From Candidatus Latescibacterota bacterium (GTDB lineage: Bacteria > Latescibacterota > UBA2968 > GCA-2709665), in assembly GCA_965208835.1 (NCBI GenBank), contig OZ242358.1, positions 4,224,001 to 4,288,000 on the forward strand: a stretch of 64,000 nt of DNA, written 5' to 3'. This document shows, in pieces, positions 11,645 to 60,144 of the stretch. The translations under genes were made by a program, and so were the position numbers. Below the pieces are notes generated by a model, which worked only from the letters and a program-made list of their open reading frames with translations, did no database searches and was not told where the DNA came from. How positions within the stretch are numbered: the first letter of the stretch is position 1; the number at the start of each line of letters is the position of its first letter.

Positions 11645-12562
11645 ATGGCTATTCCAGGCTTCCAATCCATAATGTTGCCTTTGCTGAAGCTCGCCCGTGA
11701 TGGTGAAACTCATAGACTCCGCGATGCTGCGACCATTCTTTCAGAATACTTCGAATTGACGGAAGATGAAATTAAGGAACTCTTGCGGAGTGGACGGCAA
11801 TCACGGTTTCAGAATCGAGTTGGCTGGGCGCGCACGTACCTTTCGAAGGCCGGCCTTCTGGAAACTCCAAAAAGGGGATCCTTTCGTATTACTTCGCGGG
11901 GACTGGATGTCCTAAGTCGGGACCCTGCGGAGATAGATATGAGATTCCTTGAACAATTCGAAGAGTACGTGAATTTCAAGCAGCGCCGTTCCACGCCCAG
12001 AAAGCCCGTAGCTCCAGGAGAGTTTGAGGAATCTCTGTCAACGGCCACGCCAGAAGAATCAATCGAGAATGCCTATTCTGAGTTGACGAAGGGGCTCGCA
12101 GATGAACTGTTGGACAAAGTCAAAAAGTCGCCACCGGAATTCTTCGAACAGCTTGTTGTAGATTTGCTCGTCAAAATGGGTTACGGCGGCTCCCGACAAG
12201 AAGCCGGACAGGCCATAGGCCGAGCCAGAGACGGAGGCATAGACGGGATAATTAAGGAGGACAGCCTTGGTCTGGATATTATCTATATTCAGGCGAAGCG
12301 ATGGGATTCTAACGTCAGTAGACCCGAGGTTCAGAAGTTCGCTGGGGCCCTACAGGGGCAGCGTTCGCGCAAGGGAGTTATAATCACAACCTCCCAATTC
12401 TCGAGTGATGCTACAGACTACGCGGCGAGTATAGATACTAAGATTATCTTAATCGATGGCGACGCCCTCGCCGAACTCATGATTGAACATAGTGTTGGCG
12501 TGACGACCGAGACCACATACGAATTGAAGAGAATTGACTTGGACTACTTTCCAGAGGAGTAG
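11645..12562 (+). CDS. mrr: Mrr restriction endonuclease (Type IV)
   Basis: Mrr_N (FQNRVGWARTYLSKAGLL) plus Mrr_cat (FFEQLVVDLLVKMGYG, DGGIDGII, YIQAKRW). Confidence 0.95.
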   Translation: MAIPGFQSIMLPLLKLARDGETHRLRDAATILSEYFELTEDEIKELLRSGRQSRFQNRVGWARTYLSKAGLLETPKRGSFRITSRGLDVLSRDPAEIDMRFLEQFEEYVNFKQRRSTPRKPVAPGEFEESLSTATPEESIENAYSELTKGLADELLDKVKKSPPEFFEQLVVDLLVKMGYGGSRQEAGQAIGRARDGGIDGIIKEDSLGLDIIYIQAKRWDSNVSRPEVQKFAGALQGQRSRKGVIITTSQFSSDATDYAASIDTKIILIDGDALAELMIEHSVGVTTETTYELKRIDLDYFPEE

Positions 12563-15127: not shown

Positions 15128-16270
15128 ATGGATATCGCGTGGATTCGCGGTCAGATACCGGGCCTGAAACACGGCGTTTACCTTAACACCGCTGGAATCG
15201 GTCTGTCGCCGGTCAGTGTGAACAAGGCGGTCGCCGAGGGCTATCAGCAGTTGCGCAGCGGCAGTGTCAGTACGAGCGACTGGTACGCCGCAATGAGAGA
15301 GGCCGAGGACGAATTGCCGGCCAAAATCGCCGGCTTCTTCGGAGCCGATGCAGGGGAAATCGCGCTGACGATGAGCACCGGCGAAGGTTACGGTATGGTG
15401 CTCGGCGGGCTGCGGTGGCAACCGGGAGACGAGGTTCTCATAACCAATGAGGAACATCCGGTACCCCTTCAGGCCGCCCAGGGTCTGGCGGACCGTGAAG
15501 GGGCGATCGTCAAAGTGGTCGAACTCGACCACGATAAAGACCTTTTTCTGCGCCGGGTGGAGCAAACGATCACCCCGCGTACCCGGCTGATCTGTTTCAG
15601 CCATGTCACGACGGATTGGGGGACCCGGTTGCCCGCCCGCGAGATCTGCGGGCTGGCACGGGCCCGCGGCATTTTCACGCTTTGGGATGGCTGTCAGGCC
15701 GTCGGGCAGTTTCCGGTGAACCTGCATGAAATAGGCTGCGACTTCTACGCCACCAACGGCTACAAATGGTTGGTCTCGCCGATGGGTACTGGCTTTCTCT
15801 ATGTGAGGAAAGGCGCGCAGCAATTCTTGAAGCCGCTGCGGCAACCGCACGCTCCCGATGGTACGGCCCGGCAGTACGAGACAGGAACGCGGGCGAGCGT
15901 GCTCTACCTGGGTCTCGGCGCGGGTCTCGATTTTTTGGCCGGCATCGGCGGGCCGCAGCCCATCGCCGCGGAGGCGGGACCAAAGGCGGAATCGCTTCGC
16001 GAACGCCTGGACGCCATTCCCGGTGTGCGGATCATCGGCTCACGCCGCGCCGAAACCCGGACCGCCATCGTCGCCTTCTCCATCGAGGGCATGGATGGGA
16101 ACGAAGTCTCTGACGCACTCCGGAACCGCTGGAAGATCGCCCAACGGGCGACCAACATCAACGAACCTACCGGTGTGCGGATTTCGGTGGCGTTCTACAC
16201 CAGCGACTCGGAGCTGGAAACGCTCGTTGAAGCGATCACGACACTGGCGGGCGAAAAAGGGAATCGGTAA
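15128..16270 (+). CDS. Aminotransferase class V-fold PLP enzyme (cysteine desulfurase / isopenicillin N epimerase-like)
   Basis: YLNTAG, EEHP, SHVTTDWG, DGCQAVG, DFYATNGYKWL..P.GTGFLYV, RISVAFY. Confidence 0.9.
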   Translation: MDIAWIRGQIPGLKHGVYLNTAGIGLSPVSVNKAVAEGYQQLRSGSVSTSDWYAAMREAEDELPAKIAGFFGADAGEIALTMSTGEGYGMVLGGLRWQPGDEVLITNEEHPVPLQAAQGLADREGAIVKVVELDHDKDLFLRRVEQTITPRTRLICFSHVTTDWGTRLPAREICGLARARGIFTLWDGCQAVGQFPVNLHEIGCDFYATNGYKWLVSPMGTGFLYVRKGAQQFLKPLRQPHAPDGTARQYETGTRASVLYLGLGAGLDFLAGIGGPQPIAAEAGPKAESLRERLDAIPGVRIIGSRRAETRTAIVAFSIEGMDGNEVSDALRNRWKIAQRATNINEPTGVRISVAFYTSDSELETLVEAITTLAGEKGNR

Positions 16271-16368
16271 CAGGAGAAACGCCGATTGCTTTCGCCGTTA
16301 CGGTAAACGAGGTTATGCCGGCACGCCGCGGCGTGGTCGGCCGGAAGCGACGTTGACAGACACTCTTC

Positions 16369-16397
16369 TTGACGTTCGCGTCCCGATCCTGTATATT
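16369..16397 (+). promoter_or_regulatory. Putative sigma70 promoter of DUF4143 gene
   Basis: TTGACG-17 nt-TATATT. Confidence 0.55.
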
Positions 16398-16411
16398 TCC
16401 ACCTCGCAGGC

Positions 16412-16474
16412 ATTCGACAATTGGACGCTCTCTTAACCAGCAATTGGACGCCAATGAATCCGACAAATGGACGC
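16412..16474 (+). repeat. 3 x 23-bp array (core CGACAAwTGGACGC), left copy; third unit supplies the ATG
   Basis: CAAwTGGACGC at 16418, 16441, 16464. Confidence 0.9.
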
Positions 16475-17714
16475 TAGCCGTTCCCTGTTTCCCCGCTCAC
16501 TGGAACCCGTCATCCGGGAGGCACTGGCCGACACGCCGGTGGTCTGTGTGCTTGGACCTCGGCAGTGCGGGAAAACGACGCTCGTGCGGCAACTCGCGCC
16601 CGACCGCGCATACGTCAGCCTGGACGAGCACAACTACCGTCAGACCGCCCTGGCGGATCCTGCAGGTTTCGTCGCCAGCCTGCCGGATGCGGTGACGCTT
16701 GACGAGGTGCAACGGGCGCCGGCGATTCTCCCGTCCATCAAGCACGCCGTGGACCAGGACCGACGTCCCGGTCGATTCGTGCTGACCGGCTCGGCCAATC
16801 TGTTGATGGTACCGACCGTAACTGAATCCCTTGCCGGACGGATGGAAATCGCGCAGTTGCATCCATTGACGGAATCCGAAAAAGCGCGCGCGCCAGGCCG
16901 CTTCCTCAGCGACCTGTTGAACGGCACGATCGAGCCGGGAATCAGGCAGGAGGCGACGCCCGAAGCGCAGTCACTGCCTGACCGACTGGTCGCCGGCGGA
17001 TACCCCGAACCGCTGACGCGCACGCCCGTGCGCTCCCGGCAATGGCACAGGCAGTATCTGCGTAGCATCATCGATCGGGACGTGCAGGACGTGGCGCGGT
17101 TGAGAGATGCGCACGAATTGTCCCGCCTGTTGGAGCTGTTGGCCCTTCGCAGCGCCGGACTGTTGAACACCAGCAATCTGGCCGATACCCTCGGCCTGCA
17201 CCGGTCGACGGTCAATCACTACATCGCGGTGCTCGAGCGGCTCTTTCTGGTGCGACGCCTTCCCGCGTGGCATCGGAACCCGGCCAAACGGCTCATCAGA
17301 TCACCCAAGATCCATTTCCTCGATACCGGGCTGGCCGCAACCCTCGCCGACCTGACCGCGTACGACTGGCTCGGCAGGAGGGACCGCATGGGACATCTGT
17401 TGGAGTCCTTCGTGGTGCAGCAACTCATTGCCCAGGCCACATGGACGGAACCGGATTTGCGTTTCTGGCATTATAGAGACAAGGATCGGGTGGAAGTCGA
17501 TATCGTCATTACCCGGGGTCAGAAAACCTGGGGCATTGAAGTCAAAGCCGCCCGTACGCTCGCCCCTGGAGACGGGAAGGGGCTTGTGCGGCTCGCGGAT
17601 CGCTGCGGCGAGGATTTCGAGTCCGGCGTGCTGCTTTACGCGGGCCGCGATCGTCTCCCGCTTGCGGACAAGCGCATGCTCGCGGTGCCGCTGTGCGAAT
17701 TGTGGGAGCGATAG
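16467..17714 (+). CDS. AAA_14 ATPase + DUF4143 (wHTH / PD-(D/E)XK-like) protein
   Basis: LGPRQCGKTT, LDEVQR, LTGSA, ESLAGR, GGYPE, PKIHFLDTGLA, ESFV, EVDIV...GIEVKA. Confidence 0.92.
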   Translation: MDASRSLFPRSLEPVIREALADTPVVCVLGPRQCGKTTLVRQLAPDRAYVSLDEHNYRQTALADPAGFVASLPDAVTLDEVQRAPAILPSIKHAVDQDRRPGRFVLTGSANLLMVPTVTESLAGRMEIAQLHPLTESEKARAPGRFLSDLLNGTIEPGIRQEATPEAQSLPDRLVAGGYPEPLTRTPVRSRQWHRQYLRSIIDRDVQDVARLRDAHELSRLLELLALRSAGLLNTSNLADTLGLHRSTVNHYIAVLERLFLVRRLPAWHRNPAKRLIRSPKIHFLDTGLAATLADLTAYDWLGRRDRMGHLLESFVVQQLIAQATWTEPDLRFWHYRDKDRVEVDIVITRGQKTWGIEVKAARTLAPGDGKGLVRLADRCGEDFESGVLLYAGRDRLPLADKRMLAVPLCELWER

Positions 17715-17733
17715 GGACAGGCCAAGCGTATCT

Positions 17734-17796
17734 ATTCGACAAATGGACGCATAGTTAATCGACAATTGGACGCTAATGAAATCGACAATTGGACGC
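17734..17796 (+). repeat. 3 x 23-bp array, right copy (direct repeat of 16412-16474)
   Basis: CAAwTGGACGC at 17740, 17763, 17786; 51/63 nt identical to the left array by manual alignment. Confidence 0.9.
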
Positions 17797-17808
17797 ACAT
17801 TCGAAAAT

Positions 17809-18166
17809 GGCATTGACACCCCCCACCGCATCAGCCGTCACCGGGCCCTTCGACCCTTCGACAGGCTCAGGGACCGCAAGCTCAGGGCAGCGCCTTCGAC
17901 ATTTGGACAAGCTCAATGCAAGCAAGCTCAGGGACCGGCACTGGGCAAGTTATGGGTCTCCCAATACCGGTTTAAAGACGTCCATTGAACCAAAAAACGC
18001 GTGGTCATTGAGCTTGTCGAAATGCCCGCTATTCAACAGCCCTTCGACAAGCTCAGGGCGGCGCCTTCGACCCTTCGCCGGGCCCTTCGACATTTCGACA
18101 GGCTCAATGCAAGCAGGCTCAGGGACCGGCTCGGCTTCTGCGACTCCCCCTCAAGGGGGGAGTAAT
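17809..18166 (+). repeat. Expanded composite REP cluster with nested 23-nt units, copy 2
   Basis: Several CTTCGACArGCTCAGGG and CATTTCGACAGGCTCAATG units, one inverted near 18006-18024. Confidence 0.85.
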
Positions 18167-18213
18167 GGTGGAAGGGCTATTCCATTCAGGCCCCTTCAGC
18201 AGTTGATTCTCTA

Positions 18214-19638
18214 ATGGAGTCCTATATGAAATGTGTTTTTGACCTCCGTCCTTGTGCCTTCATCGTATTGGGCGCTGTTCTGTGTCTGTCTGCCATTCCC
18301 TCCGAAGCGAGTACCGCGGATGGATCCCGGATGACCCTGGAGGCGTGTCTGAGGCAGGCCCTCTCCAGCAACCGCCAGCTGCAGGCCGCCGGGTTCGCGG
18401 CGGAGAAGGCGAACTGGGACCGGCGGAACGCGTGGTCGCAGTTCGCGCCGCGGGTCAGCTTCAACACGGAGGTCACGCGGATTGACGAGCAGACGCTGGC
18501 GGAGCGGGACTTTTCCAGGTATTTCCCTCCCGAGATCCCGGTACCGCGAGTGGCGTTCCGCACCTCCTATTACTCTTCGTTCCAGGCGCATATTCCGATC
18601 TTCGACGCCGAGCTGATCAACGGCCTGTCCGTTGCAACCACCGGTCAGGCCGCGGCCGAACGGACCCGGGAAGCCATACGGGACCGGATCCTGCTCCAGG
18701 TCACGTCAGGTTACCTGGAAGTGCTGAAACGCGGCGCGATGCTCGAACTGCAGCGTGAATTCCTCGTCCTCACCGGGCTGAACGTGCAGAAGGCCGAAAG
18801 GATGCACCGCGCGGGCAGATATTCGAAGCTGGACCTGCTGCGGTGGCAGGTGGAACACCAGGGGCAGAAGAGCAGCGTGGCCGCGGGCGAGTCCGCGTTG
18901 CGCGATGCGACGGTCCGCCTGCGCAGGCTGCTCAACCTCCGTACGCTGCACGCCGATGCGCTGGCAGACCGGATCCCGGACCGGCTCGAGGCCGAGGTAA
19001 CGCGGGTGGCCGCCCTGTCTGAAGCGGAAATCCGGAAGCTTGCGGGCGTCGACAGCCGCACGCTGGTGGGCGGAAACGCCATGCTTGCGGCCGCCGAACA
19101 GGACCGCGAACGCAGCCGCCTTGTCTACCGGGGGCAGTATTCGAGCTATCTTCCCGACGTATCTCTAAGCTATTCCTCGGCCTGGAGGAGAAACGATACG
19201 CCGGCGCTGGACGAATACAGACCCTCGACGGTCATGCTCAATCTGTCGGTGCCGCTGTTCACAGGGTTCCGCAATCTCTCGCGTCTTAAGTCCGCGCAAT
19301 ACAGTTACCGCGCTCAGGAGACGCGCTTCTCCGACCTGATCGACGAAACGCGGCAGACGCTCGGCGAAACGGTCAACCGGATCGTCAATCTGAAAACCCA
19401 GCGTGAGCTGATCAGAACCAGCCTGGACTTCAACGAGAACAACTACCGGATCGTCTCCCATGAAAAAGAAATGGGGCGGGTATCGAACCTGGAGGTGATC
19501 GACGCGAAGCTCAACCTTCAGAACGCCAGATTACTTGAGATTACGACACAATTCGACCTCACCTCGGCGGTGATCGAGCTGAGCTACCTGATGGGCGGCC
19601 TCGACGATCTGGTCGAGGAAATCGTGGAGTCAGAATGA
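18214..19638 (+). CDS. TolC-family outer membrane efflux protein
   Basis: Signal peptide; LEACLRQALSSN; YLPDVSL; LNLSVPLFTG; first gene of an RND operon (start may be ATG 18226). Confidence 0.9.
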   Translation: MESYMKCVFDLRPCAFIVLGAVLCLSAIPSEASTADGSRMTLEACLRQALSSNRQLQAAGFAAEKANWDRRNAWSQFAPRVSFNTEVTRIDEQTLAERDFSRYFPPEIPVPRVAFRTSYYSSFQAHIPIFDAELINGLSVATTGQAAAERTREAIRDRILLQVTSGYLEVLKRGAMLELQREFLVLTGLNVQKAERMHRAGRYSKLDLLRWQVEHQGQKSSVAAGESALRDATVRLRRLLNLRTLHADALADRIPDRLEAEVTRVAALSEAEIRKLAGVDSRTLVGGNAMLAAAEQDRERSRLVYRGQYSSYLPDVSLSYSSAWRRNDTPALDEYRPSTVMLNLSVPLFTGFRNLSRLKSAQYSYRAQETRFSDLIDETRQTLGETVNRIVNLKTQRELIRTSLDFNENNYRIVSHEKEMGRVSNLEVIDAKLNLQNARLLEITTQFDLTSAVIELSYLMGGLDDLVEEIVESE

Positions 19639-29865: not shown

Positions 29866-30081
29866 TTACTCGGAGACGTCTAAGCGTGCTTCATTTTTGG
29901 CAATTCGTTCGCCGAAGGAATCCAGGCGGGTGTCGATCCGATCCAAGCGGGTTTCGATCTTGTCAAAGCGAGCGTCCATTTTGTCTTCGAGTCTGTTTGT
30001 GAGCGTCCACATGGCACCTATCAGGGTGAACAGGAATACGGCCATGCGGATGTTATCGGCACTAAAGATTTTCCCTATCAT
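29866..30081 (-). CDS. Small membrane-anchored coiled-coil hypothetical protein
   Basis: GGAG RBS; one TM helix followed by heptads (RFDKIETRLDRIDTRLD). Confidence 0.55.
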   Translation of the reverse strand: MIGKIFSADNIRMAVFLFTLIGAMWTLTNRLEDKMDARFDKIETRLDRIDTRLDSFGERIAKNEARLDVSE

Positions 30082-58992: not shown

Positions 58993-60144
58993 ATGACAAT
59001 ACCACGCATATTTGACGCTCCCCGGAAAAGCTTTTTTCTCCTGGGACCTCGCGGCGTTGGAAAAAGCACCTATCTGCGATTGGCGTTCCCGGATGCGCAC
59101 GTCGTGAATCTGCTTGCCGAGGATACGTACCAACGCCTGCTTGCGAATCCGGGCCTCCTTGCCGCGGAACTACGGGCCGTACCGGGTGACCGGTGGGTGG
59201 TTCTGGACGAAATTCAAAGATTGCCAACGCTGCTTAACGAAGTGCACCGTTTTATCGAAGAACGGCGGCTGCGCTTTGTATTGTGTGGGTCCAGTGCGAG
59301 AAAACTCAAACGCGCAGGTGTCAACCTCCTCGCCGGCCGCGCCCTGAATCGCGCGATGCATCCCTTTACTCCCGAGGAGTTGGGAGAGAGGTTCGTACTC
59401 CACGACGCCTTACAACACGGACTGCTGCCCATCGTATGGGATTCGGAGGACAGGGCAGAAACACTGGTTGCCTATACGCAGATGTATCTCAAAGAGGAGG
59501 TACAAGCCGAGGCGCTTGTGCGCAATTTACCCGGATTTGCGCGCTTTCTCCCCATTGCGGCGCTCTTTCACGGCCAGACCCTTAACGTGACCAACATCGC
59601 AAGGGAAGCTCGGGTTGCGCGCACCACGGTGACGGGATATCTGGAGATCCTGGAGGAAACGCTCCTCTGCTTCCAACTTCCTGCATACGAGACCCGACTG
59701 CGGGTGCGCGAACGCAAATTGCCCAAGTGGTATTGGTGCGACCCCGGTCTTGTCAGGGCGATGAAAAAGGTAACGACGCCTCCCGCGCCGGAAGAACGCG
59801 GCGCTCTATTCGAGGGCCTGATTGCCCAGTTGATCCGGGCGTACGGGGACTACCGTGATCTGTGCGAAGAATTCTACTATTGGTCGACCGCCGCACAGAC
59901 GCGAACCGAGGTGGATTTCCTGCTCAGTCGCGACGGAGAATTCGTGGCTATCGAAGTCAAATCCGGCGGGACGTTTGCGGAATCCTGGTGCAAGGGCTTA
60001 AGGGCCCTGTCCCAACTGCCGGGTCTTTGCCGCCGGCTTGTGGTCTATCCCGAAGGACCTGAATTACGTACCGCCGACGGTATCGAAATCCTCCCGTTTT
60101 CGCACTTCTCCAACCTGCTGGCCGCCGATGCCATATGGCCGTGA
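58993..60144 (+). CDS. AAA_14 ATPase + DUF4143 protein (second paralog)
   Basis: LGPRGVGKST, LDEIQR, CGSSARKL, LLAGRA, PKWYWCDPGL, EVDFLL...AIEVKS. Confidence 0.92.
   Translation: MTIPRIFDAPRKSFFLLGPRGVGKSTYLRLAFPDAHVVNLLAEDTYQRLLANPGLLAAELRAVPGDRWVVLDEIQRLPTLLNEVHRFIEERRLRFVLCGSSARKLKRAGVNLLAGRALNRAMHPFTPEELGERFVLHDALQHGLLPIVWDSEDRAETLVAYTQMYLKEEVQAEALVRNLPGFARFLPIAALFHGQTLNVTNIAREARVARTTVTGYLEILEETLLCFQLPAYETRLRVRERKLPKWYWCDPGLVRAMKKVTTPPAPEERGALFEGLIAQLIRAYGDYRDLCEEFYYWSTAAQTRTEVDFLLSRDGEFVAIEVKSGGTFAESWCKGLRALSQLPGLCRRLVVYPEGPELRTADGIEILPFSHFSNLLAADAIWP

Follow-up and report, generated by a model that had tools for sequence, protein, structure and literature searches.

A 23-bp direct-repeat array as the probable operator of a widespread AAA_14/DUF4143 gene, and a second array left by a truncated copy

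Introduction

Several described systems place repeated DNA sites beside the gene for the protein that binds them. Plasmid iterons are head-to-tail repeats next to the gene for a Rep initiator, and auxiliary arrays, such as incA of P1 and incC of F, are also known. Initiator proteins of the AAA+ class bind repeated boxes by their own genes, with the DnaA boxes at the dnaA promoter and the ORB elements of Orc1/Cdc6 as examples. In addition, orphan gene ends that arise by duplication and recombination are found in variable loci, for instance the displaced ends in rhs and contact-dependent inhibition (CDI) loci. Here we analyze a 64-kb window (the whole stretch of DNA under study, 64,000 nt; positions 4,224,001 to 4,288,000 of contig OZ242358.1, assembly GCA_965208835.1, from a Candidatus Latescibacterota bacterium) in which a gene for an AAA_14/DUF4143 protein is bracketed by two arrays of three boxes each, called the left and the right array below.

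Our reading of this locus, to which we give a probability of about 0.7, is that the left array is the gene's own operator, lying on its promoter, and that the right array is the front-end relic of a lost second copy of the gene, not the end of a mobile element. The likeness to iterons lies in the arrangement: the repeats are phased and head to tail, their period of about 22–23 bp falls in the range of about 17–23 bp typical of iterons, they adjoin the gene of their presumed binder, and the separate second array could titrate the first or pair with it. However, the locus is chromosomal (a single 5.18-Mb contig) and syntenic in 15 genomes, and it shows neither a Rep domain nor any sign of an origin. 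Moreover, the boxes here interleave with promoter hexamers, and the second array is a truncated copy of the gene.

The encoded protein matches the candidate defence system PDC-S01 (Pfam AAA_14 plus DUF4143; COG1373) over the full length of its profile, with both domains and with ATPase and PD-(D/E)XK-like residues. In the accessible text of the respective reports, PDC-S01 ranks fourth in frequency among the candidate defence systems of prokaryotes, numbers tens of thousands of detected copies and is as yet unvalidated (PMC12988326), and DUF4143 is counted among the PD-(D/E)XK families of unknown function (PMC3424549). The repeats upstream of the gene set the present locus apart from these descriptions, as upstream repeats go unmentioned in the accessible portions of the literature on DUF4143, PDC-S01 and COG1373, including PMC12988326, PMC3424549, PMC4406477 and two bioRxiv preprints.

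Results

The two arrays in the window

The anatomy of the arrays, in boxes, spacing and position, is as first described. Searched with CAAWTGGACGC at up to one mismatch, the window returns seven matches, six of which are exact and lie on the forward strand, beginning at 16418, 16441 and 16464 to the left of the gene and at 17740, 17763 and 17786 to its right. The seventh, carrying one mismatch, is located at 29972 on the reverse strand, outside both arrays; shuffled windows gave a mean of 3.16 matches under the same rule, and these were scattered. A repeat search of the window recovers the arrays as a 63-nt direct repeat (16412–16474 against 17734–17796; 51/63 positions identical, 81%) belonging to a family that also matches itself at an offset of 23 nt. 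The spacers are unit specific on both sides, with TTAA following box 1 and AATGAA following box 2. All of this, six boxes at 23-bp spacing bracketing the gene, the direct repeat and the spacers, had been noticed earlier and is confirmed here, as is a TTGACG-17-TATATT promoter at 16369–16397. The statement that a 14-mer core recurs in all six boxes has to be narrowed, since the 11-mer is exact in six of six but the 14-mer CGACAAWTGGACGC in five, the middle left box reading CAGCAATTGGACGC. The start codon (ATG at 16467) lies inside the third left box; on the other side, the gene runs to 17714, stop codon included, and the right 14-mers begin at 17737.

Such boxes are rare in the rest of the chromosome. 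The 5,180,620-base genome contains ten exact copies of CAAWTGGACGC, six within the arrays and only four elsewhere, compared with three matches for the same pattern reversed back-to-front. Two degenerate boxes 23 nt apart are found genome-wide just at the two arrays and at one further, chance-like match (genome position 4252619), and the reversed genome gives one match. A motif scattered through the genome, which the earlier note had named as evidence that would speak against its proposal, is thus not what is seen.

The upstream array across the gene family

To place the left array in a wider context, a contig scan for homologs collected 80 loci with 41–83% identity, the titles of which name Verrucomicrobia, Proteobacteria, Chloroflexi, Planctomycetes, Spirochaetes, Acidobacteria and others. 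Together with loci from the genus and family, those with enough upstream DNA gave 87 for analysis. The 100 nt before the start codon have their best self-similarity at a period of 22 or 23 in 85 of the 87 loci (exceptions, L088 and L099), while a control segment inside the gene yields best periods scattered over 15–30. At least three units can be chained at 80 of the 87 loci, two at 4 and one at 3, though a few chains, such as that of L117, are probably spurious, and box number per locus ranges from 2 to about 11. One locus, L068, carries an amplified upstream array of ~10–11 boxes, as against 3–5 at most loci. A box matrix, which misses variant boxes, finds the primary upstream chain at 70 of 78 out-of-genus loci. 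The unit consensus contains a nearly invariant 10-bp core, CAATTGGACG, with G at position 9 and C at position 11 in 80/80, and a conserved A late in the spacer. Closer to the window, three homologs of 44–47% identity from other genera of the same class have 3–4 boxes at a 23-nt period, ending at the start codon.

The surroundings of these genes share little. The largest cluster of flanking open reading frames covers only 5 of the 80 loci, so that there is no conserved neighbor, and in none of the 80, the 82–83% identical homologs included, is the window's aminotransferase or efflux gene present within 1.5 kb. That identity is high between distant lineages, in surroundings that are unrelated, points to gene and array having spread horizontally together. 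The left array is therefore a family-wide element that travels with the gene across many phyla, and, as there is no conserved neighbor, the product of the gene is the only trans factor that travels with the boxes. The most likely reader of the boxes would then be the winged helix of this product.

The view of the boxes as cognate candidate binding sites tied to this gene is accordingly supported at the level of sequence as regards the upstream array, which recurs with the gene and whose motif is not scattered; the part of that view in which the right array serves as a matching element end does not stand. Indeed, paired arrays seldom recur around homologs outside the genus, a downstream array of at least three boxes being present at just 1 of the 78 out-of-genus loci, L088. 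There, an independently bracketed gene has a 4–5-box array ~150 nt past its stop codon, with spacer sequence in common with the upstream array. A second upstream array is present at L124, and two-box traces at L076 and L074.

Register of the boxes with the promoter

The register of boxes and promoter was analyzed at the 27 family loci that have the ATG in the last box and another box 23 nt upstream. Directly after the antepenultimate box these loci show TTG (T in 21/27, T in 20/27 and G in 16/27 at −38 to −36), and directly after the penultimate box they show TA...T (T in 22/27 at −15, A in 21/27 at −14 and T in 23/27 at −10). Spacers shifted one period out of register score lower as hexamers. 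The two embedded hexamers begin exactly 23 nt apart, which is 6 + 17, and this interleaving of hexamers and boxes explains the 23-bp period. The boxes consequently fall upstream of the −35, between the hexamers and over the predicted start site, which is the geometry of a promoter-occluding operator. As the predicted transcription start is a few nucleotides before the ATG, the mRNA would be leaderless.

The clade of the window, namely the genus plus L057, L058 and L123, departs from this pattern, its embedded hexamers being poor (0–2 of 6). In its place there is a separate promoter just upstream, so that the boxes fall in a ~65-nt leader. In the window this promoter is the sole promoter-like site found by a scan of 16200–18300 (10/12 matches), and its −35/−10 pair is conserved among the genus orthologs. 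The boxes start 18 nt past the −10 and take in the ATG, which has no Shine-Dalgarno-like sequence ahead of it. Over the same interval a terminator scan found none, and an Rfam scan at E up to 1 gave no match.

The encoded protein, its paralogs and covariation with the boxes

The earlier assignment of the gene to AAA_14/DUF4143 is borne out, both Pfam domains scoring above their curated cut-offs: AAA_14 at residues 24–138 (87.5 bits, cut-off 27) and DUF4143 at residues 203–361 (160.7 bits, cut-off 28.1). Helix-turn-helix (HTH) profiles match at residues 220–265. The PDC-S01 profile PDLC04790 matches with an E value of 4.5e-155, residues 6–414 covering profile positions 10–419 of 422. Among 32 homologs G30, G35, K36, D79, E80, E343, D345 and E358 are invariant and K360 nearly so; the Walker A and B residues and the D...ExK nuclease-like motif are thus kept, or nearly kept, throughout. 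No Rep-type initiator domain is among the Pfam matches of the protein, an NCBIfam search gave no meaningful match, and a sequence search of the PDB returned nothing below E 0.08.

An AlphaFold2 model built with the 32 homologs as input has a pLDDT of 89.4 and a pTM of 0.90. Its nearest Foldseek matches are the archaeal AAA+ ATPases 2fna and 2qen, STAND nucleoside triphosphatases, Cdc6/Orc1 on origin DNA, RuvB and DnaA, all at low TM-scores. In having an AAA+ domain followed by an HTH or winged helix, repeated sites at its own promoter, and a fold that matches 2qby (Cdc6/Orc1 on origin DNA) and 2hcb (DnaA), the protein resembles the DnaA and Orc1/Cdc6 initiators. In contrast to them, it adds a C-terminal nuclease-like domain and has no link to replication, and the fold matches reach only TM-scores of 0.27–0.41 at 14–16% identity.

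The genome encodes seven AAA_14/DUF4143 genes in all. Because none of the six other paralogs has a 22–23-nt period upstream, the direct-repeat array is specific to the subfamily of this gene. One of these paralogs is also in the window (59035–60015, a 388-residue frame; paralog identity 28–38%), and it too lacks an upstream 23-nt array. Three of the six (L012, L017 and L021) carry upstream palindromes instead, which, as at L033, lie over a TTGACA-type promoter beside the start codon. Palindromes at the promoters of other DUF4143 subfamilies raise the possibility that self-operators are general to the family and differ in architecture.

Across 75 loci, mutual information was computed between 281 variable protein columns and the 3 nt that precede the box. 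Residues 245 and 247 rank first and second of the 281 columns by raw mutual information with these box-flanking bases, a ranking that ancestry confounds. In the AlphaFold2 model they flank the invariant R246 at the start of the helix 246–258. The pairings of residues 245/247 with bases are RxE with agg or cgg (11/15), SxP with ttN (14/14), DxQ with cca or ccg (6/6) and HxS/A/G with cga (8/8). The covariation is suggestive of recognition of the box flanks by this part of the protein.

Origin of the right array

Where the right array comes from is shown by comparison of 15 genomes of the genus (G000 to G014), in all of which the flanking aminotransferase and efflux genes are shared. Orthologs with 86–93% identity are present in nine of the 14 genomes other than that of the window, so that the gene is present in 10 and absent from 5. 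In G008, G003, G010, G013 and G012 a longer copy stands behind the gene, consisting of the −35/−10 pair, 3–4 boxes and decayed first codons. The right copy of G012 matches window positions 16370–16576 (204 nt, 80%), that is, from the −35 to about coding nucleotide 110, reaching the Walker A codons, and in a separate alignment (A2) the right copies of G008, G010, G012 and G013 can be matched to the left 5′ region over a stretch that starts ~70 nt ahead of the boxes and includes the −35, the boxes and what lies between. In G000, G011, G002, G005 and G009 the copy is reduced to the three boxes, beyond which come REP-like repeats or other DNA, and in the genome of the window the promoter and coding part of the right copy are already lost. 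Since the copies in sister species reach over the −35 and −10 and up to ~110 nt of coding sequence, the right array is the 5′ remnant of a truncated tandem copy. The earlier note had itself named such a remnant as an outcome contrary to its proposal, and as far as origin is concerned that is the outcome.

Truncated copies of the gene are not confined to this position. They fall into three classes across the genus, cut at about coding nucleotide 67, 105 or 235, and occur both upstream and downstream of the gene; further orphan modules, cut at about nucleotide 67 or 235, are located up to ~16 kb upstream in G008, G010 and G014, and G008 has up to four extra arrays. As in the orphan ends of rhs and CDI loci, truncated copies of one gene end are stacked near the full-length gene; here, in contrast, what remains is the 5′ end with promoter and operator, and the fragments are on both sides of the gene. 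The island upstream of the gene in G008 (L135, G008:C1:3592000-3611000) is rearranged and contains three extra operator modules, and it also holds three Fic-like C-terminal fragments, a group II intron reverse transcriptase, a Panacea-domain antitoxin, DUF488 and a DUF772 transposase. The orphan modules cut at about coding nucleotide 235, L043 in G008 and L044 in G014, have open frames of 121 and 89 residues, respectively, with Walker A intact, and their first 60 coding nucleotides differ between the two species at 5/60 positions. This module may have been converted from a full copy or may be expressed as a short peptide.

Loss of the gene

A gene bracketed by direct repeats, missing from 5 of 15 genomes and with close homologs (82–83% identity) in unrelated contexts of other lineages, might be a mobile or site-specifically recombining cassette of ~1.3 kb whose arrays act as ends or loading sites, as the earlier note had proposed, and G014 at first sight fits, as its single hybrid copy, left type upstream and right type downstream, looks as if the repeats had recombined and removed the gene. 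The empty site with a single array that would then be expected among relatives is, however, neither uniform nor precise, there being at least three different loss junctions. G006 and G004 share one microhomology deletion running from the −35 to the last ~70 nt of the gene. The hybrid module of G014 switches from left type to right type between the −35 and −10, the outcome expected of ordinary homologous recombination between the two copies. In G001 the right-type module alone is kept, with the gene replaced by other DNA, and G007 has unrelated DNA in place of the gene and no array. A junction between the two arrays, another mark of such a cassette, was not seen in the contigs of three runs over 15800–18400, in which joints occur only in the REP-like region (17836–18128); this is weak evidence, as contigs can miss rare forms.

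Conservation of the right boxes

Divergence was estimated pairwise per site among five close genomes. In the right array it is 0.052 in the boxes vs 0.272 in the spacers, with 0.164 at third codon positions of the gene; in the left array the values are 0.055 for boxes and 0.178 for spacers. Variable columns in the right array number 5/42 in boxes and 8/18 in spacers (Fisher p 0.013), and orphan copies follow the same trend with 3/42 vs 6/18 and 7/42 vs 7/18. Conservation of the right boxes relative to their spacers suggests that the boxes of the relic may still be bound by protein.

Features of the locus

The features of the locus are collected in Table 1. The gap between the relic and the efflux operon is filled by DNA of which 17800–18166 matches dozens of places in all genus genomes; these repeats are rich in short motifs, and over them the summed contig depth is very high and joints are numerous. 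A gene for an Mrr-type restriction endonuclease (window 11645–12562), 4 kb upstream, lends the neighborhood a defence flavor.

Table 1. Coordinates, in window positions, of the gene, its arrays and the adjoining features
Feature	Position	Strand	Remarks
Class-V aminotransferase gene, upstream neighbor	15128..16270	+	Syntenic in 15/15 genus genomes
Sigma-70-type promoter, TTGACG-17-TATATT (predicted)	16369..16397	+	10 of 12 matches; the three boxes follow at transcript positions of about +11 to +70
Left array, three boxes	16412..16474	+	14-mers at 16415, 16438 and 16461; 23-nt period; proposed operator
Gene for 415-residue AAA_14 + winged-helix + DUF4143 (PD-(D/E)XK-like) protein, PADLOC candidate PDC-S01	16467..17714	+	Pfam, PADLOC profile, AlphaFold2 model
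Right array, three boxes	17734..17796	+	14-mers at 17737, 17760 and 17783; what survives of the 5′ part of a truncated tandem copy
REP-like dispersed repeats	17818..18200	.	Took the place of the remaining relic copy and occupy the stretch up to the efflux operon
Gene for outer-membrane efflux protein, first of an RND efflux operon, downstream neighbor	18214..19638	+	Syntenic in 15/15 genus genomes

Discussion

The sequence comparisons show how the arrays are built, that the upstream one recurs through the family and overlaps the promoter, and where the right copy came from. From these we infer the following mechanism, including which protein binds the boxes, which way it regulates the gene and what part, if any, the relic plays. 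The boxes are head-to-tail 10-bp units of the consensus given above, 23 bp apart, and each would most likely be bound by the winged helix of one protomer, with the protomers oligomerized through their AAA+ domains. Once occupied, the boxes would shut the gene off, and a nuclease with the potential for harm would thereby be under negative autoregulation. Across most of the family, the −35 follows the antepenultimate box and the −10 the penultimate one, with the last box over the predicted start site and the ATG. In this genus, where the embedded hexamers have decayed, the boxes, at about +11 to +70, would instead keep the polymerase from clearing the promoter or from elongating, and would also lie over the start codon. 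The right array is what is left of a module of promoter, operator and first codons, from a second tandem copy truncated before the genus diversified, and its conserved boxes may still be bound, for example as a sink, a roadblock or a looping partner.

Several observations weigh against parts of this reading, such as the gene's own product as reader of a promoter operator or bound boxes in the relic. The covariation is confounded by the shared ancestry of the loci: residues 245 and 247 are not at the top once mutual information is normalized by entropy, 37 of the top 60 covarying pairs within the major clade lie in the AAA region, and the loci with the most divergent boxes, L055 and L107, are close relatives and so provide no independent comparison of specificity. 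The selection signal in the right boxes comes from 60 columns in five related genomes; in G008 the orphan copies and the left array have a box variant in common, a sign that gene conversion can also keep boxes alike, and in G012 the right array is thrown out of register by a deletion of 4 nt. In the clade of the window the boxes are downstream of the predicted promoter and hence in the transcript, where a role at the RNA level is possible. Finally, in the accessible text of a preprint in which 4 of 8 candidates protected E. coli B, the PDC-S01 representative was not among these four and gave no protection against T4, T5 or T7 (bioRxiv 10.1101/2024.09.26.614923).

Of the other explanations, the best surviving, which we nonetheless consider unlikely, is that the array is mainly a working platform, either nucleating an ATP-dependent filament or marking self so that the nuclease stays inactive, with promoter regulation secondary. 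Such a platform would suit a fold that resembles initiators and STAND switches, which assemble on repeated DNA sites or ligands, and it would suit the wide range in box number and the retention of extra promoterless arrays with conserved boxes. Against it stands the fixed register of the boxes with the −35, −10 and ATG, as a promoter-occluding operator would predict.

It is likewise unlikely, in our estimate, that the boxes are read by some other factor, whether a transcription factor of the host or one that binds RNA and acts on the 5′ leader, in which case they would be regulatory without being a self-operator. The transcribed position of the boxes in the window's clade and the ATG without a Shine-Dalgarno-like sequence would agree with a factor of this kind, and the covariation that would tie the boxes to the protein is confounded by ancestry. 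However, the gene is accompanied by its array in many phyla, where no neighbor is conserved, and a host factor would thus need to be present in every one of these. In addition, the boxes of most homologs overlap the −35, the −10 and a predicted leaderless start, which puts most of them outside the RNA, there is no Rfam match, and within the genome the boxes are unique to this gene.

As the bracketing is a relic of duplication, the self-contained mobile cassette, to which we accord very little probability, is to be dropped: in 14 of the 15 genus genomes the arrays occur only at this syntenic locus or up to ~16 kb upstream of it (in G007 there are none), the genome of the window has just the two, the neighbors are the aminotransferase and the efflux operon with no recombinase or transposase beside the gene, the repeat search found no inverted repeats flanking the unit, the losses are varied, and 77 of the 78 out-of-genus loci lack a downstream array of at least three boxes.

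With the left array as operator and the right array as relic, a further, rather unlikely elaboration can be drawn by analogy. The module might combine a binding array for its own protein with a recombination handle by which gene copies and alleles are duplicated, swapped and truncated, and the orphan modules might act as protein-bound decoys or pairing sites that set the level of free ATPase-nuclease, as auxiliary iterons do for plasmid initiators.

Collectively, these data indicate that the left array is probably a conserved, self-read operator of a very common, uncharacterized ATPase-nuclease family, and that the right array is left over from a duplication, with boxes that may still be occupied. 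A self-operator would explain how the gene can be kept silent, and heterologous tests made with the coding sequence only, as the accessible text of bioRxiv 10.1101/2024.09.26.614923 describes, remove this native control region. A conserved and recognizable DNA site, probably read by the protein itself, would in turn provide a defined ligand for binding, ATPase and nuclease assays of PDC-S01.

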